Positions 1,429-16,650 are shown, counted from the stretch's first letter. The stretch is DNA of 16,650 bases from a virus (UHGV-0207574), one strand, 5' to 3'. Translations and numbers: made by a program. Notes: generated by a model from the sequence alone, not told the origin.

Positions 1429-1517
1429 ATCAGGCAATAAAAAGCCGCATTGATGCAGCAATGGTAGGTCTGGATATCTTGAGAAATGAACAGGCCTCAT
1501 CGAGTGTGAGACTGTGG

Positions 1518-1862
1518 TTAGTCCTTGCGTAGCTCGCTGATTCTTCTGTAAGTCTCTGGTGCTTTGTTTCCGTGTATCTTCATTTCAGACTTCAACAGAG
1601 CAACGAGGGAATCCCATTCGTTGAGGATGCCTTTGAATGCCGGAACGCGCTTTGCAACCTTGTCGAATGAATCTCTGATTTCTGGAATCTGCTCAACAAG
1701 CGCAACGCATCGCCGGAAATCTGCTGCGTCATGGGGAGCGCCGAAGTGATGACCATAGATATTCTTTTTCAGTCCACATGCGATTGAGGCAAGAGTTGCG
1801 CTACTTATGCCAACATCGCCAGTCGATTGCCATTTCAAAACCTTCATAGCCAAATCTGACAT
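1518..1862 (-). CDS. Hypothetical phage protein (114 aa)
   Basis: ORF track frame 1518..1889. The ATG at 1862 has a GGAGA RBS (GGAGACAAGAA ATG) and gives MSDLAMKVLKWQ...; the longer start at 1889 would lie inside a terminator hairpin. I do not recognise a family. Confidence 0.55.
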   Translation of the reverse strand: MSDLAMKVLKWQSTGDVGISSATLASIACGLKKNIYGHHFGAPHDAADFRRCVALVEQIPEIRDSFDKVAKRVPAFKGILNEWDSLVALLKSEMKIHGNKAPETYRRISELRKD

Positions 1863-1872
1863 TTCTTGTCTC

Positions 1873-1898
1873 CAATAAAAAACCGCCATCAGGCGGCT
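1873..1898 (-). terminator. Putative intrinsic terminator on the minus strand (GCCGCC-TGAT-GGCGG followed by TTTTTTATT)
   Basis: Minus-strand sequence CAAGCCGCCTGATGGCGGTTTTTTATTGGAG: a short GC stem, 4-nt loop and T-tract, immediately upstream of the RBS of the 1518..1862 ORF. An A-tract on the other side means it could act in both directions. Confidence 0.4.
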
Positions 1899-1962
1899 TG
1901 GTGTTCTTTCAGTTCTTCAATTCGAATATTGGTTACATTGTTTTCATATATGAATAAATAAA

Positions 1963-2142
1963 TTAGCTTTTTTCGTTGCCTTCGCGTTCTTTATTAATTT
2001 TGACAAACTCGTTTTTACCACGCTCTCCAAATGCGTCTTTAGAGTCGTTGTATCCGCAATCGCAGCACACATAATCACCAGACCATCCACGCATTGTTTT
2101 TTCTTTTGCAATATTTCCAGAACCGCATTTTGGACAAGACAT
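1963..2142 (-). CDS. Small zinc-ribbon protein (CPKC...CCDCG), 59 aa
   Basis: The ATG at 2142 is preceded by GGAGG (GGAGGTAGTGAT ATG) and gives MSCPKCGSGNIAKEKTMRGWSGDYVCCDCGYNDSKDAFGERGKNEF..., with two Cys pairs spaced as in a zinc ribbon. The ORF track start at 2175 is probably an overextension. Confidence 0.55.
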   Translation of the reverse strand: MSCPKCGSGNIAKEKTMRGWSGDYVCCDCGYNDSKDAFGERGKNEFVKINKEREGNEKS

Positions 2143-2238
2143 ATCACTACCTCCAAAGCATGAGTGAGATGACAACGTAACATTGATTGGAGATTAACAA
2201 TAGATTGCTGATGTAAAAGATATGTATAAGCTTCGCTT

Positions 2239-3066
2239 TCAAAGTGGAGGCTCTGGTAGCGGCATCCAGTGAGTTACGTCATCCAAGATATTTCCTGATA
2301 AATACGTGAAAGCTCTATATTTTTTGTAATCAATTGGATTTACAACCCAGTTCCAATATGCTGCCACGATTTCACCTTGACTAAATGCCAGTAACATTTT
2401 GGTGTCTTCCGGCATTCTCTCACTACAGCTTATCCAACCATCTGGAATTACCGGAGAGTTGCCAGATGGCTCGTTCAACTTGTAAGTTTGGCTTACAGGT
2501 TCGGCACCATGAAGCATGGCGTCGCTCCGCTCTATGCCATCCAGCGCGATTCGCAGTGCCTGAATTGTGGTAGAGCTATCGTTTGGGGCTATTCCATATC
2601 GCTCGAATACAGCTAAATGGTTGCGCATAATCTCAGGCGTAAGCTCTTTGTAAGCATAAGCAAGAGGCTCTGATGCATTATCCGGCACAACCGACGCAGG
2701 CGCGGCAGCATAAACAGGAATAACGTCCGCTTCACGAACCTGCATTGCATAGGCAACGATGTTTGCTGCGCTTGGCGTGTTCTTTGCGATCTCAGCGATA
2801 TAAGCAAAACCGCCAACAGACGCCGTTAACGATTTACGCTCCAGTTCATCGAAAAGCGTCAGGCCATCTACTGGCTTTTGCTCCCGGTGCATTCTGGTTA
2901 TTTCTTCGAAAAGGATTTTGTGTGGCCGGCTGTAAAATGAGTCAGGCTTCAGCATCGCCAGAACTTTCTGGACGCGCTCACTGCTGTCATCATCCAGAAG
3001 CAATCCACCAATCACCGCCTGCTCTGCCTCGATGCTATGGGGCGGCGCATAAAAATTATCGGTCAT
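2239..3066 (-). CDS. Chimeric replication-module protein: DnaB-helicase N-terminal domain fused to an Ead/Ea22-like region and a DUF551-like C-terminus; no helicase ATPase core
   Basis: The ATG at 3066 gives MTDNFYAPPHSIEAEQAVIGGLLLDDD ... LTASVGGFAYIAEIAKNTPSAANIVAYAMQVREA, which closely resembles the primase-interacting N-terminal domain of DnaB (PHSIEAEQ and SVGGFAY..KNTPSAANI motifs). The C-terminus (WISCSERMPEDT ... VTHWMPLPEPPL) resembles DUF551. Start overlaps the stop of the upstream O-like gene by 11 nt. Confidence 0.7.
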   Translation of the reverse strand: MTDNFYAPPHSIEAEQAVIGGLLLDDDSSERVQKVLAMLKPDSFYSRPHKILFEEITRMHREQKPVDGLTLFDELERKSLTASVGGFAYIAEIAKNTPSAANIVAYAMQVREADVIPVYAAAPASVVPDNASEPLAYAYKELTPEIMRNHLAVFERYGIAPNDSSTTIQALRIALDGIERSDAMLHGAEPVSQTYKLNEPSGNSPVIPDGWISCSERMPEDTKMLLAFSQGEIVAAYWNWVVNPIDYKKYRAFTYLSGNILDDVTHWMPLPEPPL

Positions 3067-3946
3067 CGTGTTCACCCTCACGAACTTTCAGGTAGGTATT
3101 GTCGTTAAGCAGGAAATCAAATCCCTTTTTGTGCCAGACGGTTCCGCGTTGATGGTTTGGGCGTTCTTCGAACATCCATCGGCAATTTTCGCCTACGTAG
3201 ATCAAATAATTTCTCCAGTCCTGCATCGTGAACCCATGCCCGTCAAGCTGGCGGGTTATCACTCCGGCTTTGCGCCAGAACGTTCGGATCTGGTTTTTAC
3301 GCTTGTCATTCAGTGCGCGGATTCTTGGCGCTTCAGGAAGGATTTCGTGGTAAGCATCGACAACATCCTGACAGCTGACGGAAGGTTTTTTCTTGTCAGA
3401 CTTTTTGTCTGCTGTGGCACTCTCTAATACGTCAGTATTAGAGATATTATTTATATTATTGTTTATGGACAACCGTTGGACAACCGTTGGACAATCTCCG
3501 CTGAGAGCCGCGCCATTACTGGTGTTTGCGTTGGACAACCGTTGGACAACCGTTGGACAATTTTTTGCCTGAAAATCGTCATATTTAACGATTGTAAACA
3601 GGCTAAATTTCTTCCCCATCGAGCAAATATTAAGCATCCCTTTCGACTCAAAAGTCCGTAATAAGCTCCGAACTTTGTTGTCGGGGATGAATGTTTCTCT
3701 GACCAGCGACGGGCGTCCAGTTATCATCTGACCGCGATCAACAGTTATCGGACCGATATCCGTATTGACGACAGTAGATTCGTGATTAGCCTTGAGGATT
3801 AAGTGAAGCCAAAGATGTACTGCCTGAGAGTCCTTATAGAGCCTGCTGTCCATAAACTGGCGGTGTATAGAGACATACCCCATACTGGATGCCTCCTGAT
3901 GTTGTACAGGGTTATGCCTGTAATCAGCTAACTTAACGACGCCCAT
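3056..3946 (-). CDS. Replication initiator, lambda O-like, with the origin iterons inside the gene
   Basis: 296-aa ORF with an N-terminal region resembling the phage O origin-binding domain (HLWLHLILKANHES...). A central linker is encoded by tandem 11-bp repeats, giving the duplicated peptide CPTVVQRLSN. Translationally coupled to the downstream gene. Confidence 0.7.
   Translation of the reverse strand: MGVVKLADYRHNPVQHQEASSMGYVSIHRQFMDSRLYKDSQAVHLWLHLILKANHESTVVNTDIGPITVDRGQMITGRPSLVRETFIPDNKVRSLLRTFESKGMLNICSMGKKFSLFTIVKYDDFQAKNCPTVVQRLSNANTSNGAALSGDCPTVVQRLSINNNINNISNTDVLESATADKKSDKKKPSVSCQDVVDAYHEILPEAPRIRALNDKRKNQIRTFWRKAGVITRQLDGHGFTMQDWRNYLIYVGENCRWMFEERPNHQRGTVWHKKGFDFLLNDNTYLKVREGEHDDR
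3465..3560. repeat. Putative replication origin: six iterons (unit TTGGACAACCG) in two clusters of three (3465-3496, 3531-3560)
   Basis: Direct tandem repeats seen in the sequence, lying inside the O-like gene as lambda ori lies inside O. Next to them in the gene's direction is an AT-rich tract (3440-3464) and a perfect 9-bp inverted repeat CTCTAATAC-GTCA-GTATTAGAG (3422-3443). Confidence 0.7.
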
Positions 3947-4094
3947 GTTTCACTCCTGCTTTGGCTAGTCTGTAAACACCAACAAGGCGCTCTGCGAACG
4001 CCCTGTTATTTGCTGCGGCTACCACTAATCCCTCAGGTGAATCAGGGTGTCGAATCTCTTCTTTTTCCTGGTATTTCTTACGACGTTTTGTCAT
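3933..4094 (-). CDS. Small basic hypothetical protein (53 aa), not in the ORF track (below the length cutoff)
   Basis: The ATG at 4094 is preceded by AGGAG (ACAGGAGTAATT ATG) and gives MTKRRKKYQEKEEIRHPDSPEGLVVAAANNRAFAERLVGVYRLAKAGVKHGRR. Its 3' end overlaps the RBS and start of the O-like gene. Lies between the cII-like and O-like genes. Confidence 0.4.
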   Translation of the reverse strand: MTKRRKKYQEKEEIRHPDSPEGLVVAAANNRAFAERLVGVYRLAKAGVKHGRR

Positions 4095-4128
4095 AATTAC
4101 TCCTGTGGATTGATCCAGTCTTTCTACA

Positions 4129-4407
4129 TCAGGCCTCGAAGAATTCGCCGTTCTTCGGGGCTTTTTCTTTTGTCAGCATTCTGGCTACTTTCTTAGCCAG
4201 TTCCGCCAACTCCTCGTCTTCAACACCCCATTCAAGAACAGCAAGAAGCATTCCCATTTTGGGGATGAAGCTGTCTTTCCATCGCGAAATTTGCGATTCA
4301 TTAATTCCTAACGCGTCAGCAACCTTTCGCTGACCACGTACAGCAATTCGATTCAGGATGTTGCTTGTAATTGCATTCGCTTTCTTGCGAGTACTTGTAA
4401 GTTCCAT
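4129..4407 (-). CDS. CII-like transcriptional regulator (92 aa)
   Basis: The ATG at 4407 with an AGGAAA RBS gives MELTSTRKKANAITSNILNRIAVRGQRKVADALGINESQISRWKDSFIPKMGMLLAVLEWGVEDEELAELAKKVARMLT..., closely resembling lambda CII (GVDKSQISRWKRDWIPKFSMLLAVLEWGV). The ORF track frame extends upstream to 4494. Confidence 0.75.
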   Translation of the reverse strand: MELTSTRKKANAITSNILNRIAVRGQRKVADALGINESQISRWKDSFIPKMGMLLAVLEWGVEDEELAELAKKVARMLTKEKAPKNGEFFEA

Positions 4408-4463
4408 ATGTAAGTATTTCCTTAACAAATAAGAAGTTATGCGCATCAACTTATGCGCGTTGT

Positions 4464-4509
4464 ATTCCCGCATTTCGGCGGGAATGAGGACCATGACTGT
4501 TAAAGAGCG
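4464..4509 (-). promoter_or_regulatory. nutR-like antitermination site: boxA CGCTCTTTAACA (4498-4509) and a boxB-like hairpin (4464-4485)
   Basis: Minus strand reads CGCTCTTTAACA, a 12-nt spacer, then ATTCCCGC-CGAAAT-GCGGGAAT (8-bp stem, GAAA-containing loop). It sits between the cro fragment and the cII-like gene, as nutR does in lambda. Confidence 0.5.
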
Positions 4510-4515
4510 GTGTTA

Positions 4516-4614
4516 CTATTTGTTTTTCTTGTTGCTTGGGAAAGGACGAACTTCCTCTCCAATCACACTGCCATCAGGCTTTACCGTAAACGACGCTATA
4601 CAGCCAGATGGCAA
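4516..4614 (-). pseudogene. cro gene, 3' fragment only
   Basis: Minus-strand frame ending at stop 4516-4518 translates to ...CIASFTVKPDGSVIGEEVRPFPSNKKNK, matching the lambda Cro C-terminus (INADGSVYAEEVKPFPSNKKTTA). There is no N-terminal part and no in-frame start. Confidence 0.65.
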
Positions 4615-4730
4615 TCAACTGCGCAGTGCATGAGAAAAAGCCCGCTCTGATGTTCAGCCTTGAAATGCCAGGTGATCAGATACTGGAAAAACTGGTAGGG
4701 CAGAAGTCTGGTGTTAACCCGAATATTTTT
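4611..4730 (+). pseudogene. Fragment of a DnaB-family helicase core (region just after Walker A), on the plus strand
   Basis: The first ~40 codons of the ORF track frame 4608..5093 read AINCAVHEKKPALMFSLEMPGDQILEKLVGQKSGVNPNIF, resembling E. coli DnaB (AMNLCENAAMLQDKPVLIFSLEMPSEQIMMRSL). The rest of that frame looks like non-coding alt-frame sequence. Confidence 0.4.
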
Positions 4731-4759
4731 TACCTTCCGGCGACAAATGACGCTGATGA

Positions 4760-5281
4760 CGGCTACTCGGGGAAAACATCCTTTCCTGCGATACGGAGAA
4801 GAGTATCCGGGAGCGATTTTCTGTTTACCAGGTGGCGGGGCAGCGTGCCGGAAACGACGATGATTTCGGTGAGGCCACCACCACCGCGCTGCGGGCCCGC
4901 ACAGAGGACGCATTTATTGCCCGTTACCGTCCGATGTATATCAGGCAGACAGGGCAGGCTACGGGGGCAGGCTGTATTGCCCGTGCGGACTTTGAAGCCC
5001 GGCAACGGGCGGCGCGGACGGATGAAACCACCTATGTGGTGCAGGGCTGGCGACAGGGTAACGGTACGCTGTGGCAGCCCAACCAGCGGGTGATTGTCTT
5101 CGATCCGGTCTGTGGTTTCGACAATACCGAACTGCTTGTCTCGGAAGTCACGTTTACTCAGGACCAGAATGGCACCCTGACGGAAATCCGTGTCGGCCCA
5201 CCTGATGCTTATCTGCCTGAACCCGAAGCCCCCGGCGCGCGGAAAAAGAAAAAAGCCAGAGTACAGGAGGACCCGTTCTGA
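4760..5281 (+). pseudogene. 5'-truncated baseplate-hub/tail gene (Mu gp44 / P2 gpD-like), C-terminal part
   Basis: The frame is open from the stop at 4757-4759 with only a GTG at 4832 as a possible start. Its stop overlaps the start of the downstream gpV-like gene (TGATG), and position and composition match the upstream member of a Mu-type baseplate cluster. Family assignment is by position, not recognised sequence. Confidence 0.45.
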
Positions 5282-5829
5282 TGAGGACGATTGAAGCCAT
5301 GCAGCGACAACTCCTCGGCCTGATTGGGCGGGCCGTGGTGAAAAGCATCAGTGCCGCCACGAAATGTCAGACCGTGGATGTGTCCCTGATTGCCGGTGAA
5401 CCCAAAGCCGGGATTGAACATCTTGAACCCTACGGTTTTACCGCAAGGGCAAACAGCGGTGCGGAAGCGGTGGTGTTGTTTCCGGATGGCGACCGTTCTC
5501 ATGCGGTGGTTGTTACGGTGTCGGACCGGCGTTACCGCCTGAAAGGGCTGCAGACGGGTGAGGTGGCTGTCTATGACGATCAGGGGCAGTCCGTGACGCT
5601 GACCCGGGAGGGGATCGTGGTGGACGGTGCAGGTAAAACGATCACGTTTCGCAATGCGCCCAGAGCACGTTTTGAAATGGACCTGGAAGTGACCGGACAG
5701 GTGAAAGACCTGTGCGACTCCGGCGGCACCACCATGTCAGCGATGCGGCTTGCCTATAACGGGCATCGTCACAGAGAGAACGGTCAGGGCAGTAACACCG
5801 ACAAACCTGATAAAGCGATGGAGGCATGA
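5281..5829 (+). CDS. Baseplate assembly/spike protein, gpV-like (Mu gp45-like)
   Basis: 182-aa ORF, translationally coupled on both sides, GC-rich, with a C-terminal DSGGTT motif that I recall from P2 gpV-type proteins. Confidence 0.65.
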   Translation: MRTIEAMQRQLLGLIGRAVVKSISAATKCQTVDVSLIAGEPKAGIEHLEPYGFTARANSGAEAVVLFPDGDRSHAVVVTVSDRRYRLKGLQTGEVAVYDDQGQSVTLTREGIVVDGAGKTITFRNAPRARFEMDLEVTGQVKDLCDSGGTTMSAMRLAYNGHRHRENGQGSNTDKPDKAMEA

Positions 5830-6254
5830 TGGTACTGTGGCTGACGGTGAACGGTAAACGCACCTGCGCCAGCGCACCGCTGGATCCGCTGACCCGCGCC
5901 GTGGTGATTTCCCTGTTTACCTGGCGGCGGGCGGAGCCTGATGACAACGCCGACGTCCCGATGGGATGGTGGGGGGATACCTGGCCTGCGGTACAGAATG
6001 ACCGTTACGGCTCCCGGCTGTGGCTGCTTCAGCGCAGCAAACTGACCAATCAGCTGGTGCAGACGGTAAGGGGGTATATCCGCGAATGTCTGCAATGGAT
6101 GATTGATGACGGCGTGGTGTCCCGTATTGATCTGGATATCCGCCGCACCGGGATTAATGAACTGGGTAACAGTATCACTCTCTGGCGTCGTGACGGACCG
6201 GTAATGATTTCTTTTGATGATCTGTGGAGTGCGATAACGCATGGCGGACAGTGA
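5826..6254 (+). CDS. Baseplate protein, phage GP46 family (gpW-like)
   Basis: 142-aa ORF with start overlapping the upstream stop (ATGA). Size and position between the V-like and J-like genes are typical of a Mu-type baseplate cluster. Confidence 0.6.
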   Translation: MMVLWLTVNGKRTCASAPLDPLTRAVVISLFTWRRAEPDDNADVPMGWWGDTWPAVQNDRYGSRLWLLQRSKLTNQLVQTVRGYIRECLQWMIDDGVVSRIDLDIRRTGINELGNSITLWRRDGPVMISFDDLWSAITHGGQ

Positions 6255-7299
6255 ATTTCAGCGCCCGACGCTGGCAGAAAATATCAGTATGCTCCGTAAC
6301 GATTTATTCGCCAGGCTGGACGTCAGCGACACGCTCCGGCGCATGGATGAAGACGTGCGGGCAAAGGTGTATGCGGCGGCGCTGCATACGGTTTACGGGT
6401 ACATCGATTATCTGGCAATGAACATGCTGCCTGACCTGTGCGATGAGTCCTGGCTGGCGCGACATGCTGCGATGAAACGGTGTCCGCGCAAGGGGGCCAC
6501 GGCTGCCAGCGGGTATATGCGCTGGGAAGGTGTCAGCGATGGCCTGAAGGTGACCGCCGGGAGTGTTATTCAGCGCGATGACCTGGTTCAGTACACGGCA
6601 ACTGCCGATGCAACCAGCTCCGGTGGTGTCCTGCGCGTGCCGATCGCCTGCTCAAGTTCAGGCGCGGTCGGTAACGCTGACGACGGTACGTCATTAATCC
6701 TGGTCACGCCGGTGAATGGTCTGCCGTCTTCCGGTGTGGCTGACACCCTGACAGGCGGATTTGATACTGAAGATCTGGAAACGTGGCGCGCCCGCATCAT
6801 TGAGCGGTATTACTGGACGCCGCAGGGCGGGGCTGACGTGGACTATGTCGTCTGGGCTAAAGAAGTGCCCGGCATTACCCGCGCATGGACATACCGACAC
6901 TGGATGGGAACGGGGACTGTCGGTGTGATGATTGCCAGCAGTGACCTGATTAACCCCATTCCGGAAGAATCAACGGAAACGGCAGCAAGACAACATATCG
7001 GGCCACTGGCCCCGGTGGCAGGCTCTGATTTGTATGTATTCAGGCCGGTGGCGCACAAAGTGGATTTTCATATCCGCGTGACGCCGGACACACCGGAAAT
7101 ACGGGCTGCCATTACCGCAGAGTTGCGTTCATTCCTGCTGCGTGATGGTTATCCGCAGGGAGAGCTGAAGGTATCGCGTATCAGTGAAGCGATTTCCGGT
7201 GCGAACGGGGAATACAGCCATCAGTTGCTTGCTCCGGCGGACAATATCTCCATTGCAAAAAATGAACTGGCGGTTCTGGGGACGATTTCATGGACGTGA
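6241..7299 (+). CDS. Baseplate J-like protein (Mu gp47-like)
   Basis: 352-aa ORF in the conserved V-W-J-I order, overlapping its neighbours. Confidence 0.65.
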
Positions 7300-7874
7300 C
7301 AAACGATGATTACATCCGTCTGTTGTCGGCACTGCTGCCGCCCGGTCCGGCGTGGTCAGCCAGCGATCCGGCGATTGCCGGTGCGGCACCGTCATTAACT
7401 CGTGTTCATCAGCGTGCGGATGCCCTGATGCGGGAGCTGGATCCGCGCACCACCACCGAACTGATAAATCGCTGGGAGCGTCTGTGCGGCCTGCCGGATG
7501 AATGTATTCCCGCAGGGACACAGACCCTTCGCCAGCGTCAGCAACGGCTGGATGCGAAGGTTAACCTGGCGGGTGGCATCAACGAGGATTTTTATCTTGC
7601 ACAGCTTGCTGCCCTGGGCAGACCAGATGCCACCATCACGCGATACGACAAAAGCACGTTCACCTGCTCATCGGCCTGTACTGACGCTGTGAATGCGCCG
7701 GAATGGCGGTATTACTGGCAGGTCAACATGCCAGCCGCCGCCAACACCACCTGGATGACATGTGGCGATCCCTGTGATTCCGCACTGCGTATCTGGGGTG
7801 ACACCGTTGTCGAGTGTGTGCTTAACAAACTCTGCCCGTCGCATACCTACGTAATTTTTAAATATCCGGAGTAA
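7290..7874 (+). CDS. Tail protein, Mu gp48 / YmfQ-like (P2 gpI position)
   Basis: 194-aa ORF directly downstream of the J-like gene and upstream of the tail-fibre gene. Confidence 0.6.
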
Positions 7875-7877
7875 TCC

Positions 7878-8519
7878 ATGCATCGTATAGACACGAAAAC
7901 CGCGCAGAAGGATAAGTTCGGCGCGGGTAAGAACGGTTTTACCCGTGGTAACCCCCAGACCGGCACGCCTGCCACCGATCTGGATGATGACTACTTTGAC
8001 ATGTTGCAGGAGGAGCTTTGCAGCGTTGTGGAGGCCTCCGGTGCCAGCCTGGAGAAGGGGCGGCATGACCAGCTGCTTACCGCGCTTCGTGCGCTGCTGT
8101 TAAGCCGCAAGAATCCGTTTGGCGATATCAAATTGGACGGCACGGTGCAAAAGGCTCTCGAAAACCTTGGTTTGGGAGAAGCGGCTAAAAGAAATGTAGG
8201 GACAGGGGCGAATCAGATACCTGATATGGGTAGCTTCACGCTTTCTGTTTCAGGTACTGGATATCAAAAATTGCCATCCGGTTTAATTATTCAATGGGGG
8301 CCAATTGATGTTCCGCTGACGTCTCAGGACACAGTAACCTATTTTCCGATTGCATTTCCGAATAGATGTCTGCGGGTATTTGCGACTCAGGATTACACTC
8401 CCGGCAGTGCAAATGTTGGCTATATAGCTTGTGCCGGTTATAACCAGGACCCGGTGAAATTTATTTCCAGAGCAGGCGTACCCGGTCTCGGTGCTTCATT
8501 TTTCGCATTAGGGTGTTAA
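7878..8519 (+). CDS. Tail fibre protein (short; constant N-terminal part plus variable C-terminal part)
   Basis: GGAG RBS. The N-terminus [74 protein letters not shown] is the conserved tail-fibre N-terminal region of Mu/P2-type fibres. GC content drops sharply after ~8180. Confidence 0.7.
8155..8180. promoter_or_regulatory. Candidate relic serine-invertase crossover site (gix/hix-like) inside the tail-fibre gene
   Basis: CTCTCGAAAACC-TT-GGTTTGGGAGAA is an imperfect 26-bp dyad with the AAACC-NN-GGTTT core typical of Gin/Hin/Pin sites as I recall them. It lies at the constant/variable junction of the fibre and coincides with the GC drop. Confidence 0.35.
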
Positions 8520-8545
8520 TTTCTTTTAACTTTATGGAGTGAAAA

Positions 8546-8986
8546 ATGAATCACATATATTCCGCGACTACAAACTCTTTCTATCCCTTGGAGATGAAAG
8601 AGGATTACACGCAAGCTGGCTCATGGCCAGATGATGCTGTTGAAGTTGATGAGCAAGTGTATATTGAGTTTTCCGGATTACCGCCGAAAGGAAAAATCCG
8701 TATCGCTGGAGAAAATGGTTTTCCTGCATGGTCTGAAATTCCACCACCAACACATGAGGAACAGATTGCTGCAGCCGAACTGAAAAAGCAGCAATTGATT
8801 AATCAGGCCAACGATTATATGAACAGTAAACAATGGGCTGGTAAAGCGGCTATTGGTCGTCTGAAAGGTGAGGAACTGGCGCAATATAATTTGTGGCTGG
8901 ATTATCTGGACGCACTGGAGCTGGTCGATACTTCCAGTGCGCCAGATATTGAATGGCCTACTCCTCCGGCAGTTCAGGCCAGATGA
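8546..8986 (+). CDS. Tail fibre assembly protein (Tfa/U-like)
   Basis: 146-aa ORF with a GGAG RBS, ending ...SSAPDIEWPTPPAVQAR, a typical Tfa C-terminus. Immediately downstream of the tail-fibre gene. Confidence 0.7.
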   Translation: MNHIYSATTNSFYPLEMKEDYTQAGSWPDDAVEVDEQVYIEFSGLPPKGKIRIAGENGFPAWSEIPPPTHEEQIAAAELKKQQLINQANDYMNSKQWAGKAAIGRLKGEELAQYNLWLDYLDALELVDTSSAPDIEWPTPPAVQAR

Positions 8987-9260
8987 CATCCGGCGCGGTG
9001 CTGGTATCTGTTGCCGTCACCGCGTCAATGTAATCCAGCACAGTGTTAAGTCGGGAGGTCTCTGCCTGCATCAGCTTCCGCCCAGCCCGTAATTTCAGTT
9101 GAATCAGACTAATGGAAGCCATTGCAGTATCAATCAGTGACTGACGCTGTGCTTCTGCCGCGTCTACTGCGGCGTGATGCTGTGCCTCAGTATCGGTCAC
9201 CCATTTCTCACCATCCCATTTATCGTATGGCGTTAATGGGGCGATAGTCGCGGGACGCAT
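8958..9260 (-). pseudogene. Second tail fibre assembly gene (C-terminal half only), convergent with and overlapping the first
   Basis: Minus-strand frame MRPATIAPLTPYDKWDGEKWVTD...TSTAPDVIWPELPEE has a Tfa-like C-terminus. It is blocked upstream by a stop at 9318-9320, so at most ~120 codons remain. Overlaps the 3' end of the plus-strand tfa by ~29 bp. Confidence 0.5.
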
Positions 9261-9284
9261 ACAAACATAACCCCTGGATGTTAT

Positions 9285-9566
9285 GTGTCTATCGAGAATC
9301 AAAGTGGAAGTCCTTATGTTAAGTATAAGACAGGAATCACTTATAACGATAATCAGTTAGTATATGTATCTATCACTGTTGATGATAATATCAGCACTTG
9401 GTTCTGGAGGGGGTTTGTTGTGGGCAATGATGCATTTAAGTTATCGTCTGCAGATAGAGGAGATATTACAATAAACAACGAATCAGGGCATTTGATAGTC
9501 AATACCGCAATTCTATCAGGAGATATAGTCACTCTAAGAGGAGGAGAAATTAGGTTGGTATTATAG
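9285..9566 (+). other. Orphan ORF (93 codons, GTG start, no internal Met), possibly a 3' gene fragment
   Basis: VSIENQSGSPYVKYKTGITYNDNQ...DIVTLRGGEIRLVL is rich in N/T/S/V/I, like the beta-rich tip of a fibre. There is no ATG and only a weak RBS. It lies in low-GC DNA between the tfa remnant and gtrC. Confidence 0.25.
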
Positions 9567-9570
9567 CTTG

Positions 9571-9592
9571 TGCGCGCCATGATTGGCGCGCA
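9571..9592. repeat. Perfect GC-rich palindrome TGCGCGCCA-TGAT-TGGCGCGCA between the convergent stop codons of the orphan ORF and gtrC
   Basis: 9-bp perfect inverted repeat with a 4-nt loop and no adjacent T-tract on either strand. Could be a terminator-like hairpin or a protein-binding palindrome. Confidence 0.45.
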
Positions 9593-9600
9593 ATTTAAAC

Positions 9601-10932
9601 TTAGTGCTTTACATCGCTATTGTCTTGATTTCTTTGAATTATTTTATAAATTAAAAAAACGACTGTTATGTATAAGCAAAGGTCGAACGAAAAATACATT
9701 CCAAATAAATGCTTGCTTAAATCTCTATATCCTTCCCCGAAAAATGACACATAAAATTGAGATATTCCAAAAAGAGATACTACAAATAAAGATGCCTTTA
9801 TTTTATTATTTCTAATAAAAATAGAAGCAATAAAAAATAATAACAATGATATAAATCTAATGTTTTTAAATATATTGTCTTTTATGTTAGTAATAGTCGT
9901 TAGTATGTTTGATTCTCCATATATTACGTGTAGTTTTTTATATACATGGAAATAATTTTCTTTATACTGAGACATCACACCATCATCAAATGGAAGTTTG
10001 AAGATGGTGCTTGGTTTGCTAACCAATAAAAAGAGTGCATTCGAAAACGTTTCATCTTTATGAGATTCGAAACATTCCGTTCCAACTTCTGTTGGGGTTG
10101 CGCCAAATGATATGTCGAATTTATTACCCCAAGCATCTAACCCAACACACTTATCATCAACATACGATGGCATTTTATACCCGTTGTTTTTCATATAAAG
10201 ATAACTACCGAAGTATGTTGCATGGTACTTATTTAATTCAACAACACCTTTTGAATAAGATATTGCAAATATTGACGCAAGCAAGCACACCACGCATATT
10301 ACAGATTTAATAATTAGTTTGTGTCTATCAAAAAAAATATAATATGAATACACTATTAGTGGGGTTAATATAAATTGATTTTTAGCAGTAGATATTATTA
10401 GCAACGAAAAAAATAGCAAAAGCATAGATTTATTGTTTTTGCATGTTAATGAATACACCAAAAATGGAAGGAAAATTATAACTATTTGCTCTTGATAGAA
10501 TGATGCAAACATTGACAGTGTTGATGAAGAACACATAAGAAAAGCTAAAATAAAGAATGTAAATAAAGTTACATACCTTTCTGTTTTTATATATGAAGTA
10601 AATATCGCATATAATGAATAAATATATATTACTTTTAGAAATAACGATAACACCCTAGCATCAAGATATTCAGTAAAAATGCTAATAAACAGGACGTATG
10701 TATACAAAATATAACTATATGAACTTATATACTCATAGCTATCAATTGAATCAATATGACCTTTCAATTTATACAATAAAGGTAAGTCATATGTAAATGC
10801 TGGTATGTCTTCAATTAATGGCTTAATGGCTCTTCCGAAATCAGATGTATTTAACATCATTATGTTTTTAGATAAGGCGCAAATAATCAAAACAAAAGAT
10901 ATATACAATGATACTTTTATTGCTTTATTCAT
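9601..10932 (-). CDS. gtrS: Serotype-specific O-antigen glucosyltransferase, GtrC-type polytopic membrane protein (K-12 equivalent yfdI/gtrS)
   Basis: 443-aa, very AT-rich, highly hydrophobic multi-pass ORF. Third gene of a gtrA-gtrB-gtrC operon and translationally coupled to gtrB. The family is defined by position and topology rather than sequence conservation. Confidence 0.7.
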
Positions 10933-11849
10933 TTTTTGACTCTCTTGATGATGTATTTCGGGCGTTTTTTGGTTTCAATGTATGTGCGTCCAATATATTC
11001 ACCTAATACTCCTATTCCAATCATCTGAATTCCACCTAAAAACAGTATTGAAACAAGTAGTGAAGGATATCCCCTAACAGCATTTCCAAATATGATAGTA
11101 TCTAAAATCATCCACGCCCCATAAATAAATGCTACACTGGCTACCACTAACCCTATGTATGTCCAGATGCGAAGAGGGAATGTGGAAAAGCTTGTAATAC
11201 CCTCAAGTGCTAAATTCCAAAGTTTCCATCCATTAAATTTTGTATCTCCAGCAATTCTTTCCGCTCGCACGTATTCAACAATATCTGTCTTTCCTCCTAC
11301 CCAGCTCAGAATACCTTTCATGAAAAGGTTTCGTTCTGGCATAAGTTTAATATTTTCGACAACATCACGGCTCATCAGCCTGAAATCACCAACATTCTCT
11401 TCAATTTTAGGATTGCTTATTTTATTGTGGAGCTTATAGAACCACTCAGCCGTTTTTCGCTTCAGGCGTCCATCAGTTGAGCGGTCAGATCTTTTAGCAA
11501 GAACCATATCAGCACCTGCTTGCCATTTTTCAATAAGATGAGGAATAACCTCAATCGGGTCTTGCAGGTCAACATCAATTGGGATTATCGCATCCCCGGT
11601 TGCATGGTCTAACCCTGCAAACAATGCTGGTTCTTTACCAAAGTTGCGTGTAAATGACAGCGGAACAACTAGAGGATCTGAAACAGCCAGAGCATTAATG
11701 ATTGACTCCGTAGCGTCTTTGCTGCCGTCATTTATGAAAACGATTTCCACTTCATATGACTTCAATTCTTCGAATTCACGTACCGTTTTATAAAAAATTG
11801 GTATCGCTTCTTCTTCATTGAAGACAGGAACTACAAGAGATATCTTCAT
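10929..11849 (-). CDS. gtrB: Bactoprenol glucosyltransferase GtrB (GT2 family)
   Basis: 306-aa [23 protein letters not shown]...INDGSKDAT...DVDLQDP: a GT2 catalytic domain followed by C-terminal transmembrane helices, as in GtrB/YfdH. Confidence 0.85.
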
Positions 11850-12208
11850 TTCGCATCCCTAAAGACAATGAACTTTGAATAGACGAAACCGCACACCAGG
11901 CTGATGGCGGAGAAGGTGACAAGAGTTATCATCGGGGGAAGTGCGCATCTATCAGCAGCCCATCCAACAGTAGCACTCAGTGTCCCCATGAACCCAACAT
12001 ATAGCATGTAGCGCATCGTTGTAGTCGATGCCTTGAATGTGAATTTTGCATTCGCGAAGAAGCTAAAGCTCACAGCCACAACGAAACCTGCGAAGTTTGC
12101 AAGAGCTTGGTTTGTATGCGCGACATAGATACAAACACCAAAAACCACCCAGTGTATAAGGGTGTTCAGCACACCAATAGAGGTGTACTTTGCAAATAGC
12201 TTTAACAT
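11846..12208 (-). CDS. gtrA: GtrA family flippase for undecaprenyl-phosphate glucose
   Basis: 120-aa small four-helix membrane protein, first gene of the operon, overlapping gtrB by 4 nt. Confidence 0.8.
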
Positions 12209-12360
12209 TTCTTCTATCAGCTAATAATCAAAGGAATGAAGTCTATCATCCAAGTCTTAATCGATCGATACTTGCTGTGGTTGATGAGACAAAACTTATA
12301 CACACAAAGCTTTGCACTGGATTGCAAGACTTTGTGCTATTCGATAGTTGTTAAGGTCGC

Positions 12361-13518
12361 TCACTCCACCTTCTCATCAAGCCAGTCCGCCCACCATTGC
12401 ATCATTTCTCTGCGTTTATCGAGATACTGAGCATGGTTGTAAATCCCACGCACAGATCCGCCGTTTGCATGTGCCAGTTGCACTTCAATAGCGTCAGCAG
12501 GCCATTCGTGCTCGTTCATAATCGTGCTGAATTCATGCCTGAATCCGTGACCGCTTTCCAGACCCTCATAGCCGATTTGTTTGATCACAAGCAGTACCGC
12601 GTTCTCGCAGATTGGCTTCTTCTTATCGTTGCGCCCGGCAAAAACAAACTCTGAGACTGGTTTGGTGATGGAGCTTAGCGTAGTGAGAAGTTCAACTACC
12701 TGGTCTGACATAGGAACCACATGAATTTTGCGTCCTTTCATCACACTGGCGTCGATGGTGATAATCCTATTTTCAAAATCGACGTTCTTCCATAGCATGG
12801 AACGAAGCTCTTTCGTTCTTAGGGCTGTGTAGCGTAAAACTTTGGTCGCAATGAGCGATACGATACTTCCTGAAAATGTTGCCAGTGCTTTGTTGAATGC
12901 CGGGATCTGGTCTGCAGGAAGAAACGGGAAGTTCTTCTTGCGGTATCCCTTCATGGCGTCAGCAAGGTCAGGTGCCGGGTTATATTTAGCCCTTCCGGTG
13001 ACAATAGCGTAACGGAAAACCTCGCCGCATCTTCTGCGTGCTTTGTTGGCTCGTTCCATTGCACCGCGATCTTCAAACCTGCGGATTACTTCCAGCAGTT
13101 GCATCGGCTCAATATCCTGAATTTCAAGGCCGCCAATGATAGGTAAAATGTCGTCGTCAAACATTTTGGCAAGTTCAGTTGCATACCCTACTGACCATAC
13201 TTGCTTCTTGTGCTCGTACCATTCCTTGTAAATCGCACTAAAGGAATTGTTGTTAGACGAAGCCTTTTTCGCCTTTACAGGATCGATGCCAACCGAGATG
13301 TCTTTCCTCGCAGTCCATGCTTTATCCCTTGCCTCCTGCAAAGTCATAAGCGGATATTTTCCGACGGTCAGGATTTTCTCCTTACCGTCAATCTTGTAGC
13401 GAAGCTGCCATACCTTTTTCCCTGACACAGGGACATAAAGGTACAGGCCATTACCATCGAGAAGGCGGTATGGTTTTTCTTTCGGCTTTGCTGCTTCAAT
13501 CTGCTTAACGGTGAGCAT
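12361..13518 (-). CDS. intS: Tyrosine-family site-specific integrase (IntS-like)
   Basis: From the ATG at 13518 (MLTVKQIEAAKPKEKPYRLLDGNGLYLYV...) the protein has a P4-type integrase N-terminus and a C-terminal catalytic domain (...HGFRHEFSTIMNEH...GIYNHAQYL). The ORF track starts at an upstream GTG at 13554. Adjacent to the tRNA. Confidence 0.85.
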   Translation of the reverse strand: MLTVKQIEAAKPKEKPYRLLDGNGLYLYVPVSGKKVWQLRYKIDGKEKILTVGKYPLMTLQEARDKAWTARKDISVGIDPVKAKKASSNNNSFSAIYKEWYEHKKQVWSVGYATELAKMFDDDILPIIGGLEIQDIEPMQLLEVIRRFEDRGAMERANKARRRCGEVFRYAIVTGRAKYNPAPDLADAMKGYRKKNFPFLPADQIPAFNKALATFSGSIVSLIATKVLRYTALRTKELRSMLWKNVDFENRIITIDASVMKGRKIHVVPMSDQVVELLTTLSSITKPVSEFVFAGRNDKKKPICENAVLLVIKQIGYEGLESGHGFRHEFSTIMNEHEWPADAIEVQLAHANGGSVRGIYNHAQYLDKRREMMQWWADWLDEKVE

Positions 13519-13563
13519 GGGTAAAAATCCGGTGGGTAAAATTATTTTATCCACTTTTTACCC
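13519..13563. repeat. Octamer repeats GGGTAAAA (13519-13526, 13534-13541) and inverted TTTTTACCC (13555-13563) at the integrase 5' end; candidate arm-type or RDF binding sites
   Basis: Seen directly. The same motif occurs twice next to att-right (1177-1198). Confidence 0.4.
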
Positions 13564-13678
13564 GTCATGGAGTGCGGCTGTCAACGATCTGAAGCGAACC
13601 ATGACGAACTGTAAATCTACGGAATGCTTGATATTCAGGGGATTTTGCGGACTGGTACGGATGGGAGCGAACTGATAA

Positions 13679-13694
13679 ATGGTGTCCCCTGCAG
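13679..13694. repeat. att-left core overlapping the 3' end of argW
   Basis: ATGGTGTCCCCTGCAG, identical to 1104-1119. Confidence 0.8.
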
Positions 13695-13754
13695 GAATCG
13701 AACCTGCAATTAGCCCTTAGGAGGGGCTCGTTATATCCATTTAACTAAGAGGAC
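13680..13754 (-). tRNA. argW: tRNA-Arg (anticodon CCU)
   Basis: Minus-strand 75-nt sequence GTCCTCTTAGTTAAATGGATATAACGAGCCCCTCCTAAGGGCTAATTGCAGGTTCGATTCCTGCAGGGGACACCA. It has the acceptor stem, an anticodon loop CU-CCU-AA, a GGTTCGATTCC T-arm and an encoded CCA end. Confidence 0.9.
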
Positions 13755-13765
13755 AATGCGGCATG

Positions 13766-13794
13766 AGTATACCCGCTAATGGAGTGCGGGGTAA
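13766..13794 (-). promoter_or_regulatory. Putative argW promoter (-35 TTACCC, 17-bp spacer, -10 TATACT)
   Basis: Minus-strand hexamers ~12 nt upstream of the mature tRNA 5' end, followed by a GC-rich discriminator. Weak -35 element. Confidence 0.3.
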
Positions 13795-13829
13795 GTACGC
13801 TGCCGCTCGATTGCTTAAACCCTCGCCAT

Positions 13830-14762
13830 TTATGCCGGGTTTTTATAATTTTTCTTAATGTTTTCCGCACGTTCTGCTTTTTGGCGTGCTTCTGCTTTAC
13901 GCTTATTGCTCATGTCGTTACGAATCTGTGCATGACTCATTAACGCGAAGATAAAGGTGCCGCCGCAGATGTTCCCCGCTAAAGTAGGTAGTGCGAAGGG
14001 CCAGATGAAATCGCTCCAGTGCAGCGTACCGTTAAACACCAGATAGAGGATTTCAACAGAACCGACCACGATATGGGTGGTGTCACCCAGGGCAATAAGC
14101 CAGGTCATCAATATAATCACCACAATCTTTGCCGCACCCGCTGCAGGAAACATCCAAACCATAGTGGCGATCAGCCAGCCGGAAATGATCGCGTTGGCAA
14201 ACATCTCGCTGGGGGTGTTCTTCATCACATCCATGCCGATTTTGACAAATGCATCGCGAGTTTCTTCATTGAAGATAGGCATATATTCAAATGCCCACGC
14301 CGCAATACCTGTCCCGAGAATATTACCCAGCAGCACGACGCCCCATAACCGTATAAGTAAGCCGACGTTGCTCATTGTCGGTTTTTGCATGACGGGTAGT
14401 ACCGCAGTCACGGTATTTTCGGTAAATAATTGCTGGCGGGCCATAATGACGATAATAAAACCAAAGGTATAACCGAGATTCTCCAGCAAGAAGCTGCCCG
14501 GCACACCTTCCAGTTCGACTTGAAATATCCCTTTTGCCAGTAACGAAGCGCCCATCGACAGACCCGCCGCAATGGCTGACCACAGTAGCGCCATTGCGTC
14601 GCGTTCCAGCTCTTTTTCACCATCCTGGCGGATATGCTCATGAATTGCCATCGCCCGGGAGGGGAGTCGGTCTTCATCTATTTCTATTTTTTTGCCGCGC
14701 TCTTTTTCTTCGCTCTCAACTTCAATTTCGTCGCTGTGTTGATCAATTTTGTCGTTGTCCAT
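13830..14762 (-). CDS. yfdC: Formate/nitrite transporter (FNT) family inner-membrane protein
   Basis: 310-aa ORF with an acidic N-terminal extension followed by a polytopic membrane core. Matches my recollection of E. coli YfdC in size and position next to argW. Confidence 0.8.
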   Translation of the reverse strand: MDNDKIDQHSDEIEVESEEKERGKKIEIDEDRLPSRAMAIHEHIRQDGEKELERDAMALLWSAIAAGLSMGASLLAKGIFQVELEGVPGSFLLENLGYTFGFIIVIMARQQLFTENTVTAVLPVMQKPTMSNVGLLIRLWGVVLLGNILGTGIAAWAFEYMPIFNEETRDAFVKIGMDVMKNTPSEMFANAIISGWLIATMVWMFPAAGAAKIVVIILMTWLIALGDTTHIVVGSVEILYLVFNGTLHWSDFIWPFALPTLAGNICGGTFIFALMSHAQIRNDMSNKRKAEARQKAERAENIKKNYKNPA

Positions 14763-14943
14763 GGTCTCTTCTCTTGAATTAGCACGTATAGCTAAAGCGT
14801 AGCGGCTTTTTTGCTCGCAACTGACGGGAGTTACTCTGAAAATGTAGAAAAGGCTGCGTTTGCCTTTTTCTGTTTCTATAGAATCAAGTAGCCTACAGGG
14901 CGGCGATTACCAGGCTATGATCAAATCAGCAAATCAGGGCGTC

Positions 14944-14971
14944 TGGACATCAGTTGACGTGCTGTTACAAT
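14944..14971 (+). promoter_or_regulatory. Putative sigma-70 promoter for mlaA (-35 TGGACA, 16-bp spacer, -10 TACAAT)
   Basis: Hexamers at 14944-14949 and 14966-14971, ~85 bp upstream of the mlaA start. Confidence 0.35.
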
Positions 14972-15055
14972 CGCCCACACCTAAACAGGCGGATACGGTA
15001 TCGTTCCGTCATGGATGGCAAACTGCATAAGCCATAAAAAAACAGGGAGACATTT

Positions 15056-15811
15056 ATGAAGCTTCGCCTGTCGGCGCTTGCTCTGGGAACTACGCTTCTG
15101 GTGGGGTGTGCGAGTTCCGGTACAGATCAGCAAGGGCGTTCTGACCCGTTAGAAGGGTTCAACCGCACCATGTACAACTTCAACTTCAATGTATTAGACC
15201 CGTATATTGTTCGACCGGTCGCTGTCGCCTGGCGTGATTATGTTCCGCAACCGGCGCGTAACGGTTTGAGCAACTTTACTGGCAACCTTGAAGAACCTGC
15301 GGTGATGGTTAACTACTTCTTGCAGGGCGACCCTTATCAGGGGATGGTCCACTTTACCCGCTTTTTCCTGAACACCATTTTGGGGATGGGCGGTTTTATT
15401 GATGTTGCAGGGATGGCGAACCCGAAACTGCAACGGACTGAACCTCACCGCTTCGGTAGTACGCTTGGTCATTATGGCGTGGGTTATGGGCCTTACGTTC
15501 AGTTACCGTTCTACGGTAGCTTCACGCTGCGTGATGACGGTGGTGATATGGCGGATGGTCTTTACCCGGTTCTTTCCTGGCTGACCTGGCCGATGTCTGT
15601 GGGTAAATGGACGCTTGAAGGGATCGAAACCCGCGCTCAGCTGCTGGATTCCGATGGTCTGCTGCGTCAGTCGTCCGATCCTTATATTATGGTGCGCGAA
15701 GCGTACTTCCAGCGTCATGATTTCATCGCTAATGGCGGCGAACTCAAACCGCAGGAAAATCCGAACGCACAAGCGATTCAGGATGATTTAAAAGATATTG
15801 ATTCTGAATAA
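15056..15811 (+). CDS. mlaA: Outer-membrane lipoprotein MlaA/VacJ (phospholipid asymmetry maintenance)
   Basis: AGGGAG RBS; MKLRLSALALGTTLLVGCASSG has a lipoprotein signal peptide with lipobox LVGC. 251 aa, matching my recollection of MlaA/VacJ. Confidence 0.88.
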   Translation: MKLRLSALALGTTLLVGCASSGTDQQGRSDPLEGFNRTMYNFNFNVLDPYIVRPVAVAWRDYVPQPARNGLSNFTGNLEEPAVMVNYFLQGDPYQGMVHFTRFFLNTILGMGGFIDVAGMANPKLQRTEPHRFGSTLGHYGVGYGPYVQLPFYGSFTLRDDGGDMADGLYPVLSWLTWPMSVGKWTLEGIETRAQLLDSDGLLRQSSDPYIMVREAYFQRHDFIANGGELKPQENPNAQAIQDDLKDIDSE

Positions 15812-15826
15812 GAAACAAATAAAAAA

Positions 15827-15852
15827 GGTGAGTCGCAAAACTCACCTTTTTT
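15827..15852. terminator. Bidirectional intrinsic terminator between convergent mlaA and the yfdF-like gene
   Basis: AAAAAA-GGTGAG-TCGCAAAA-CTCACC-TTTTTT: a 6-bp stem flanked by an A-tract and a T-tract. Confidence 0.7.
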
Positions 15853-15992
15853 GTTGTTATCCCTCAATTACCACAAGTAAAAGGAGATAAACCGACAATG
15901 ACCTAGACGTAATTATGTAAAAATACTGATGTTCGTCACTGACTATTTCCGATATTCAGCTGTTGAAAAATCAAAAAACTGGAAAAATAATT

Positions 15993-16650
15993 TTAAATAT
16001 CATCAAAATTAACACCTGGCGCAGATGGTTGATTAATTTCATTTTGATATTCAGCCTGGCGATTTTGAAGCCTTTCTTCAATTTTACCTTCGAGATCCTT
16101 AAAATGCTTATATATTTTTTGAGAATGGCCAACGTTAATTTTGTTACCGACTAAAGTAGAAACTATTTCTTTTAGATGGTCGCATTTATATTTTGCATCG
16201 TCCACTTGAAAATCATATCTTATTGCTCGACCATAACGTTTAAAAACGTCGTTTGGTTCTCTCAGTCTTTCCCCGTTGAGCTCGTTTACAACCTGATGAT
16301 CGGAACCAGTTGCAAATGATTCTGCCATGATAGCTTTACTGCTTTCAAACCACGCTGAAGCACTCCTGGCGTTTTCACTACAATATTGGGTGAGACTATC
16401 ACCATTAATACGAATTCCTCTTTGAATGTGGTAGTCGTCCTGATCGTAGTAACCGAGAGATAAGTAATCATTTCCGTTTTTATTTTTAATTACAATAGCG
16501 AGAGAGTCGCCTTTTTTATCTTTACCGTACCAGGTAAATAAGTCCGTTGGTTCGCTTTTCCCGCTCTCATCAAATTCCGTTACCGTATGTCTGAGTTTGT
16601 GTGATATCTTATCGAAGATAAAACCAGGATCTCCATCATATATTTCTTTT
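15993..16650 (-). CDS. yfdF: Hypothetical protein (YfdF-like), 3' portion; 5' end lies beyond the window
   Basis: My own translation of the minus strand shows one continuous open frame from the window edge to the stop at 15993 (...KAIMAESFATGSDHQVVNELNGERLREP...NFDDI). The ORF track reports only the part after the first ATG (15993..16328). Name assigned by synteny only. Confidence 0.5.
   Translation of the reverse strand, partial: KEIYDGDPGFIFDKISHKLRHTVTEFDESGKSEPTDLFTWYGKDKKGDSLAIVIKNKNGNDYLSLGYYDQDDYHIQRGIRINGDSLTQYCSENARSASAWFESSKAIMAESFATGSDHQVVNELNGERLREPNDVFKRYGRAIRYDFQVDDAKYKCDHLKEIVSTLVGNKINVGHSQKIYKHFKDLEGKIEERLQNRQAEYQNEINQPSAPGVNFDDI

Follow-up and report, generated by a model that had tools for sequence, protein, structure and literature searches.

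A convergent pair of tail-fibre-assembly genes as the probable remnant of a Pin-type invertible cassette in a CPS-53/KplE1-type prophage of Escherichia coli

Introduction

The invertible tail-fibre segments of bacteriophages Mu (G, with the invertase Gin) and P1 (C, with the invertase Cin) have the same layout as the e14-type cassettes: a constant fibre part and a crossover site are followed by the variable part Sv, the gene U, the convergent gene U′ and the alternative part Sv′, and then by a second site and a gene encoding a serine invertase. For recombination, invertases of the Hin/Gin type require a pair of sites together with a Fis-bound enhancer, all in cis within a single supercoiled domain. 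The P segment of e14 (stfP/tfaP, tfaE/stfE, pinE) is the experimentally studied paralogue in K-12 and inverts (PMC4272514, PMC12529663). In Tfa proteins the N-terminal domain is variable and binds the fibre tip, and the C-terminal domain, which is helical and conserved, mediates trimerisation (PMC9608196, citing work on the Tfa protein of phage Mu). In phage SfIV a second tfa gene was called a unique additional gene and a possible explanation of host range (PMC3851460).

Here we analysed a stretch of 16.65 kb, referred to as the window, in which a complete and a truncated tfa gene converge. We consider it very probable (roughly 0.9) that this pair, in a CPS-53/KplE1-type prophage, is what is left of an invertible tail-fibre cassette of the Pin type, similar to the P segment of e14.

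Results and Discussion

The Prophage and Its Fibre Gene

The window represents a CPS-53/KplE1-type cryptic prophage at a tRNA-Arg (CCT) gene of Escherichia coli and is ~99% identical to K-12 at the nucleotide level, with 99.7% identity over 7940-15620 to K-12 MG1655 and over 4764-16650 to strain 1409. Phages of this family combine SfV-like early genes with Mu-type baseplate genes. The gene order matched the RefSeq annotation of K-12 and strain 1409, running from dsdC, torI and the early genes through baseplate V, gp46, baseplate J and YmfQ to the gp53-like fibre, yfdK, a tfa pseudogene, yodE, yfdI (gtrS), yfdH (gtrB), yfdG (gtrA), intS, tRNA-Arg and yfdC, and Pfam agreed with each gene assignment in the window. 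The tRNA-Arg (CCT) gene at 13680-13754, beside intS in the K-12 annotation, is presumably argW, judging by the K-12 gene name.

The tail-fibre gene of the yfdL type (7878-8519, plus strand, 213 aa; Pfam PF21882, E = 6.4e-18) encodes a protein with 96% amino acid identity to the fibre of ETEC1717, and the annotations of K-12 and strain 1409 name it a gp53-like domain protein. It consists of a constant N-terminal part, which extends up to a crossover site, and a variable tip with the gp53-like C domain. This site, a pix-type invertase crossover site of 26 bp (CTCTCGAAAACCTTGGTTTGGGAGAA), is located at 8155-8180 on the plus strand inside the fibre gene, where it encodes ..ALENLGLGE... All 26 positions are identical to the stfE site of e14 and to the left sites of SKA5, SfIV, SfV, 720R4 and W619, and the core AAACCnnGGTTT is common to the window site, Mu gix and P1 cix. 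The Sv′ open reading frames of SKA5 and ETEC1717 show the motif LGEGS at their crossover site. Upstream of the site the sequence is 95-97% identical across the relatives, and identity to the P2-like phages L004 and L005 starts at it (8156 and 8162). A constant fibre N-terminus ending at a crossover site is therefore present in the window.

The site is single. The sequence AAACCNNGGTTT occurred once in the 16.65 kb when up to one mismatch was allowed, and no other 26-mer of the window came within 8 mismatches of the site; the next-best one (3420-3445) had 9 mismatches and did not contain the AAACC..GGTTT core. Scanning 7800-9700 for inverted repeats yielded only arms derived from a motif shared by the Tfa proteins.

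The fibre region is mosaic. SKA5 and W619 are 95-97% identical to the window as far as ~8254 (break at 8251-8254), then lose this identity and regain it, at 92%, from 8723. The segment 8254-8723, comprising the tip of the fibre and the half of tfa that encodes the N-terminus, forms one exchangeable unit, a pattern that fits co-variation of the tip with the fibre-binding domain of its chaperone.

The Convergent tfa Pair

The gene yfdK (8546-8986, plus strand), annotated in K-12 and strain 1409, starts with ATG and encodes a complete tail-fibre-assembly protein of 146 aa, as the preliminary description of this DNA had claimed. Its product matched PF02413 (Caudo_TAP) over nearly the whole profile (positions 2-130 of 131; E = 1.9e-39, 135.3 bits) and is the chaperone for the fibre tip of the expressed orientation. 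YfdK is 98.6% identical to the tfa product of ETEC1717 and 70% to that of SKA5, and shares 61% identity with e14 TfaP over the C-terminal 100 aa.

On the opposite strand, an open reading frame at 8958-9302 contains tfaS. Counted from a TTG it comprises 114 aa, and counted from the ATG at 9260 it has 100 codons, in agreement with the ~100-120 codons given before for a truncated tfa, but its homologous part is restricted to 8958-9248, namely the C-terminal 96 codons and the stop of a 200-codon gene of the TfaE type. The fragment matched PF02413 with E = 1.3e-25 and 90.5 bits, so that both proteins lie above the gathering cut-off of 22.1 bits; since its match covers only profile positions 34-131 of 131, the N-terminus is missing. 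RefSeq accordingly labels tfaS in K-12 and strain 1409 as a pseudogene, "incomplete; missing N-terminus". By the breakpoint at 9248/9249, the remaining nucleotides 9249-9302 of the minus-strand frame are not Tfa sequence. The stop said to block this frame at 9318-9320 proved to be a misreading: that triplet is AAC (Asn) in frame, and the true upstream stop lies at 9357-9359 (plus-strand tta, minus-strand taa).

By alignment, the tfaS peptide corresponds to residues 105-200 of 200-aa full-length relatives, and it is 97.9% identical to the tfa′ product of vB_EcoM-720R4, 92.6% to e14 TfaE and 89.5% to SKA5 tfa′; at the nucleotide level 290 of 291 positions agree with the intact tfa′ of ETEC1717. 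A chance antisense reading frame was rejected in view of the Pfam E-values and the near-identity to full-length genes elsewhere. The proposed alignment to the U pairs of Mu, P1 and e14, which would have gone against the cassette had the minus-strand peptide not been Tfa-like, thus gave a strong relationship to e14 and a distant one to Mu and P1: YfdK matched U′ of both phages with ~30% identity over ~73 aa (E about 1e-6), and the match of the tfaS fragment to their U proteins was non-significant (E about 0.1). Compared with each other, the two Tfa proteins of the window are 37.5% identical over 72 C-terminal residues.

The coordinates of the two frames give a tail-to-tail overlap of exactly 29 bp (8958-8986), where ~29 bp had been estimated. 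The same overlap was found in e14, SKA5, SfIV, the P2-like T22 phage, KP12, W619 and ETEC1717; being identical across these cassettes, it is a property of the module and not of the window locus. In Mu, by contrast, 28 bp lie between U and U′, and the fibres of Mu and P1 are much longer than that of the window.

Intact and Decayed Cassettes in Related Prophages

Among the described systems the P segment of e14 belongs to the same tail module as the cassette of the window, with baseplate J and YmfQ, a short fibre of the gp53-like type and a convergent pair of tfa genes, and it shares the 29-bp overlap as well as the crossover site within the fibre gene (26/26); overall, the e14 sites are identical or near-identical to that of the window. 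Unlike the window, e14 possesses a full-length tfaE, a second fibre part, a second site and pinE.

Intact cassettes were also detected in other relatives, namely the prophages of E. coli ETEC1717 and TUM11352, the SfV/KplE1-like phage SKA5, W619 and EcE.CRE.COL. Behind the genes for YmfQ, the fibre and Tfa, all of them have a convergent tfa′ of full length, an additional C-terminal fibre part and a gene for a pinE-type invertase, and the segments are flanked by inverted 26-bp crossover sites. The baseplate, fibre and tfa genes of SKA5, ETEC1717, TUM11352 and W619 are near-identical to those of the window, but in place of their tfa′ N-terminus, Sv′, right site and pinE-type invertase gene the window has yodE-gtrS-gtrB-gtrA-intS at argW. 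The prophages of ETEC1717 and TUM11352 are the closest relatives of the window's own alleles. ETEC1717, the closest intact relative, is collinear with the window (L017 2887-7371 against window 4764-9248) at 97.7% nucleotide identity, and beyond the shared part continues with the other 104 codons of its 200-aa tfa′, the second fibre part Sv′ (181 aa) and pinE. Homology of the window to an intact cassette is thus collinear up to a discrete breakpoint (9248). In SKA5 the cassette encodes a fibre of 215 aa, a Tfa of 146 aa, a convergent Tfa′ of 197 aa, a minus-strand fibre C-terminal part of 153 aa and an invertase of 187 aa; its two sites, at 4356-4381 and 6182-6207, are inverted relative to each other, and ~65 bp past the right one the invertase gene (6272-6835) begins. 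P2-like phages (the P2 relative from O157:H43 T22 and Klebsiella phage KP12) have a convergent tfa module adjoining an invertase gene as well, in the T22 phage enclosed by perfect inverted repeats of 31 nt.

Those relatives whose cassette is intact have ssrA or dusA as their integration site. No intact cassette was found at argW or beside a gtr operon; at argW, in the gtr-carrying lineage, only decayed versions were seen. The suggestion that relatives would hold an intact cassette at this position therefore applies to the place within the tail module and not to the integration site.

Decayed versions are exemplified by SfIV and SfV, which resemble the window in their Mu-type tail genes, fibre, tfa, gtr operon and int and in having a lone left crossover site. 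In SfIV, a tfa′ of 174 codons is cut by, and abuts, an insertion element (ISEhe3-like) upstream of gtrIV, whereas SfV has no tfa′ but just a terminator before gtrV. As SfIV, KplE1 and SfV retain tfa′ pieces of different lengths, the cassette has decayed to different extents across family members, with SfIV and SfV representing states of decay that were reached independently from one type of cassette. The 174-aa ORF-22 of SfIV (L003 5125-6803) can be seen as the same relic at an earlier stage of decay.

The Breakpoint and the Right-Hand Replacement

Homology to every intact cassette breaks off at 9248/9249. In the base-by-base comparison with 720R4, the window was identical up to 9248 and unrelated from 9249, and all blastn matches to relatives ended at 9236-9248. 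The whole junction (window 9100-9700) was present in 364 of 5,426 complete E. coli genomes in a single shared state, and in ~1,930 further E. coli genomes the match ended exactly at 9248, the gene there usually being annotated tfaE. Every listed genome with the yodE/gtrS side showed the same truncation, and none with the yodE side but without the junction occurred among the E. coli genome matches listed. Among the species representatives of GTDB, the exact junction 25-mer was contained in only two records, both named E. coli. This distribution fits one ancestral rearrangement that was passed on together with the prophage.

Past the breakpoint, on its right-hand side, an orphan segment of ~350 bp (9249-9600, plus strand) with lower GC content replaces the distal half of the cassette; GC drops from ~0.53 to ~0.36 and then to 0.21-0.28 in gtrS. 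The segment harbours yodE (9420-9566, plus strand; Pfam PF23504), a small open reading frame inside a longer, GTG-started one of 93 aa (9285-9566). A blastn search in distant mode against 50,697 phage records gave no match to 9249-9600, and among 5.8 billion proteins the 93-aa frame found only self-like E. coli matches. No end of an insertion element, target duplication or obvious microhomology was seen at 9248/9249. The short repeats around it (CGATAG at 9241-9246 with CTATCG at 9289-9294, and ACATAAC/GTTATGT between them) were considered as a deletion signature and discarded, being too short to be told from chance. Between yodE and the gtrS end there is a GC-rich hairpin, GCGCGCCAtgatTGGCGCGC, at about 9575-9594.

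The place of the relatives' invertase is held by an O-antigen glucosylation and integrase module (9601-13554). According to the K-12 annotation it consists, all on the minus strand, of gtrS (yfdI; 9601-10932, 443 aa), gtrB (yfdH; 10929-11849, Pfam GT2), gtrA (yfdG; 11846-12208, Pfam GtrA) and intS (12361-13554, Pfam phage integrase). The yfdI/gtrS product had no Pfam match at E of 0.01 or better, and by its very low GC content (0.21-0.30) the gene stands out as foreign within the prophage. Identity of gtrB and gtrA to SfV is only 82.6%.

Missing Components and Proposed Origin

The second fibre part and the recombinase had been reported missing from the sequence, and searches of the entire window bear this out. 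With the PinE proteins of ETEC1717 and e14, the SKA5 invertase and Mu Gin as queries, tblastn against all six frames gave a best E of 1.6, and with two Sv′ proteins as queries for a second fibre tip the best E was about 1. The only recombinase found in the window is the tyrosine integrase IntS. Functional Hin/Gin/Cin/Pin systems have two inverted sites, an adjacent serine invertase gene and two sets of fibre tip and tfa; the window keeps one site and one complete set (8181-8519 and yfdK), and what is left of the second set are 96 codons of tfa′. With one site and no invertase in cis, the cassette is presumably locked in the yfdL/yfdK orientation. In agreement with this, inversions were found in e14 and none in CPS-53 in a published BLAST survey (PMC12529663).

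The preliminary description had regarded the locus as a relic shufflon with the signature of the Mu G segment. The relic of an invertible cassette and the shared architecture are upheld here, but the closest model is the e14 P segment with Pin, and "shufflon" is the wrong word for a two-site segment served by a serine invertase. An R64-type shufflon, with its multiple inverted 19-bp sfx sites and the tyrosine recombinase Rci acting on pilV segments, was ruled out on the grounds that the inverted-repeat scan gave only the arms of the Tfa motif, that the site is of the Hin/Pin type and that the intact relatives carry serine invertases.

Judging from the relatives at ssrA and dusA, the ancestor of this prophage probably had an intact cassette. 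In it, a serine invertase would have recombined two inverted 26-bp sites, of which the first lay in the fibre gene and the second immediately ahead of the gene for the invertase. Inversion of the ~1.8-kb segment would have provided two alternative sets of fibre tip and cognate chaperone, the constant fibre N-terminus being fused to either tip. A single rearrangement at 9248/9249, presumably a loss and not a step in the build-up of a cassette, would then have taken away codons 1-104 of the second chaperone gene as well as the second tip, the second site and the invertase gene. In their place the window has the 350-bp orphan segment, followed by gtrS-gtrB-gtrA-intS adjoining argW.

Fate of the tfaS Fragment

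Of the two Tfa domains, tfaS keeps only the conserved C-terminal one, and its cognate fibre tip is gone. Without the fibre-binding N-terminal domain it qualifies as a pseudogene, and the fragment is most likely non-functional. Nevertheless, we weighed the opposite view that the truncated gene was retained because it is expressed and useful, its product acting as a free C-terminal trimerisation domain that poisons superinfecting phages of the TfaE type or that works together with fibres of other prophages. All five copies read (window, K-12, strain 1409 and two further genomes) have an uninterrupted frame between the ATG at 9260 and the stop at 8958, so a truncated protein may be expressed, and a weak promoter-like match is located upstream of tfaS on the minus strand (9291-9264). 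Promoter-like matches were no commoner than in shuffled sequence, though: the scan of 7700-9800 found 5 against 4.8 expected, and terminators were likewise at expectation. The persistence of the junction in 364 genomes could also be taken as a sign of usefulness but follows from vertical inheritance of the prophage as a whole.

Too few substitutions date from after the truncation for relaxed selection to be read from them. Compared with 720R4, tfaS carries 2 non-synonymous and 0 synonymous changes, and compared with ETEC1717 a single change; pN/pS was 0.20-0.27 against intact copies and 0.07-0.20 among intact copies, with nearly all of the divergence predating the truncation. The non-synonymous differences from intact genes, together with a patch of 9 substitutions in the K-12 copy, suggest that no strong constraint acts on the fragment. 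Fibre genes of the cryptic prophage e14 do have a demonstrated anti-phage role (PMC12529663), but the fibre-binding domain is absent from tfaS, RefSeq treats the gene as a pseudogene and a tfaS::kan knockout serves just as a neutral marker (PMC2951348). On balance, a retained function of tfaS appears highly improbable to us.

The K-12 patch deserves a description of its own. Over 8501-9620 the window and K-12 differ at 11 positions, of which nine fall into 58 bp inside tfaS (9138-9195; K-12 L001 7199-7256) and a tenth, at 9088, is also within tfaS. Several K-12 bases in the patch correspond to SfIV, SKA5 or KP12 alleles, and the window has the bases of ETEC1717 and 720R4. From the pattern of alleles, the patch looks like gene conversion, which would mean that tfaS still exchanges sequence with tfa′ copies of other prophages.

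Alternative Explanations of the Locus

A second route by which the decayed cassette might still be active concerns its lone site, which could be used in trans by PinE, PinQ or PinR of other prophages, pair with sites in e14 or elsewhere and thereby cause large chromosomal inversions or exchange of fibre genes. The site at 8155-8180 is indeed identical in 26 of 26 positions to a P-segment site of e14, and K-12 contains both CPS-53 and e14 with pinE. Sites ~1 megabase apart are, however, very poor substrates for invertases, and the conservation of the site is sufficiently explained by its fibre-coding role, SfV keeping it without a cassette. Although PinQ and PinR act in trans on e14, the survey that included CPS-53 as a query detected no inversions with it (PMC12529663). 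We regard this use of the site as just as improbable as a function of TfaS. The same low expectation holds for an active cassette in general, whether through the pix site or through a TfaS C-terminal domain that blocks TfaE-dependent phages; if the latter were true, the expressed domain would be a defence function born from a pseudogene.

Least credible of all is the proposal that the pair was never part of an invertible segment here and that recombination with another prophage, illegitimate or homologous, brought in the tfa′ fragment. Mosaicism is pronounced in tail-fibre regions, as seen in the interrupted identity to SKA5 and W619 (lost at 8251-8254, resumed at 8723), and the K-12 tfaS has its conversion-like patch, but the window is uninterruptedly collinear, at 97.7% identity, with a relative that has the full cassette from the baseplate through the 29-bp overlap into tfa′, the geometry of this overlap and the structure of the tfa-tfa′ junction are those of all intact cassettes, and the left crossover site is in place.

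Descent from a Pin-type cassette remains the reading that we prefer for the convergent pair. The gene tfaS is already annotated as a pseudogene in K-12; it is a decayed member of the well-known Pin/Gin/Cin systems and a case of ordinary prophage decay, so its importance beyond correct annotation is small. A published statement that tfaS is the relic of an invertible segment was not found in the literature searched. Still, the locus is a clear example of how a switching cassette decays as a prophage gains gtr genes for lysogenic conversion with an integrase and turns cryptic, with three stages for one cassette at hand: 174 codons of tfa′ in SfIV, 96 codons in KplE1 and none in SfV. The relic reading also explains the "extra" tail-fibre-assembly gene that had been reported as unique in SfIV. 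Furthermore, it carries a warning, namely that a convergent tfa pair or a lone invertase site does not amount to active phase variation unless an invertase and a second site are present.

Outside the fibre region, the window differs from the reference prophages in its left part. No megablast match to CPS-53 of K-12 or strain 1409 was obtained for 1516-4763, and minus-strand early-region open reading frames at 2239-3081, 3056-3946 and 4129-4494 differ from those of K-12. At ~4764 this region is joined directly onto a truncated baseplate assembly gene, the head genes and most tail genes being deleted; the window thus holds a deletion variant of the cryptic prophage that differs from the one in K-12.
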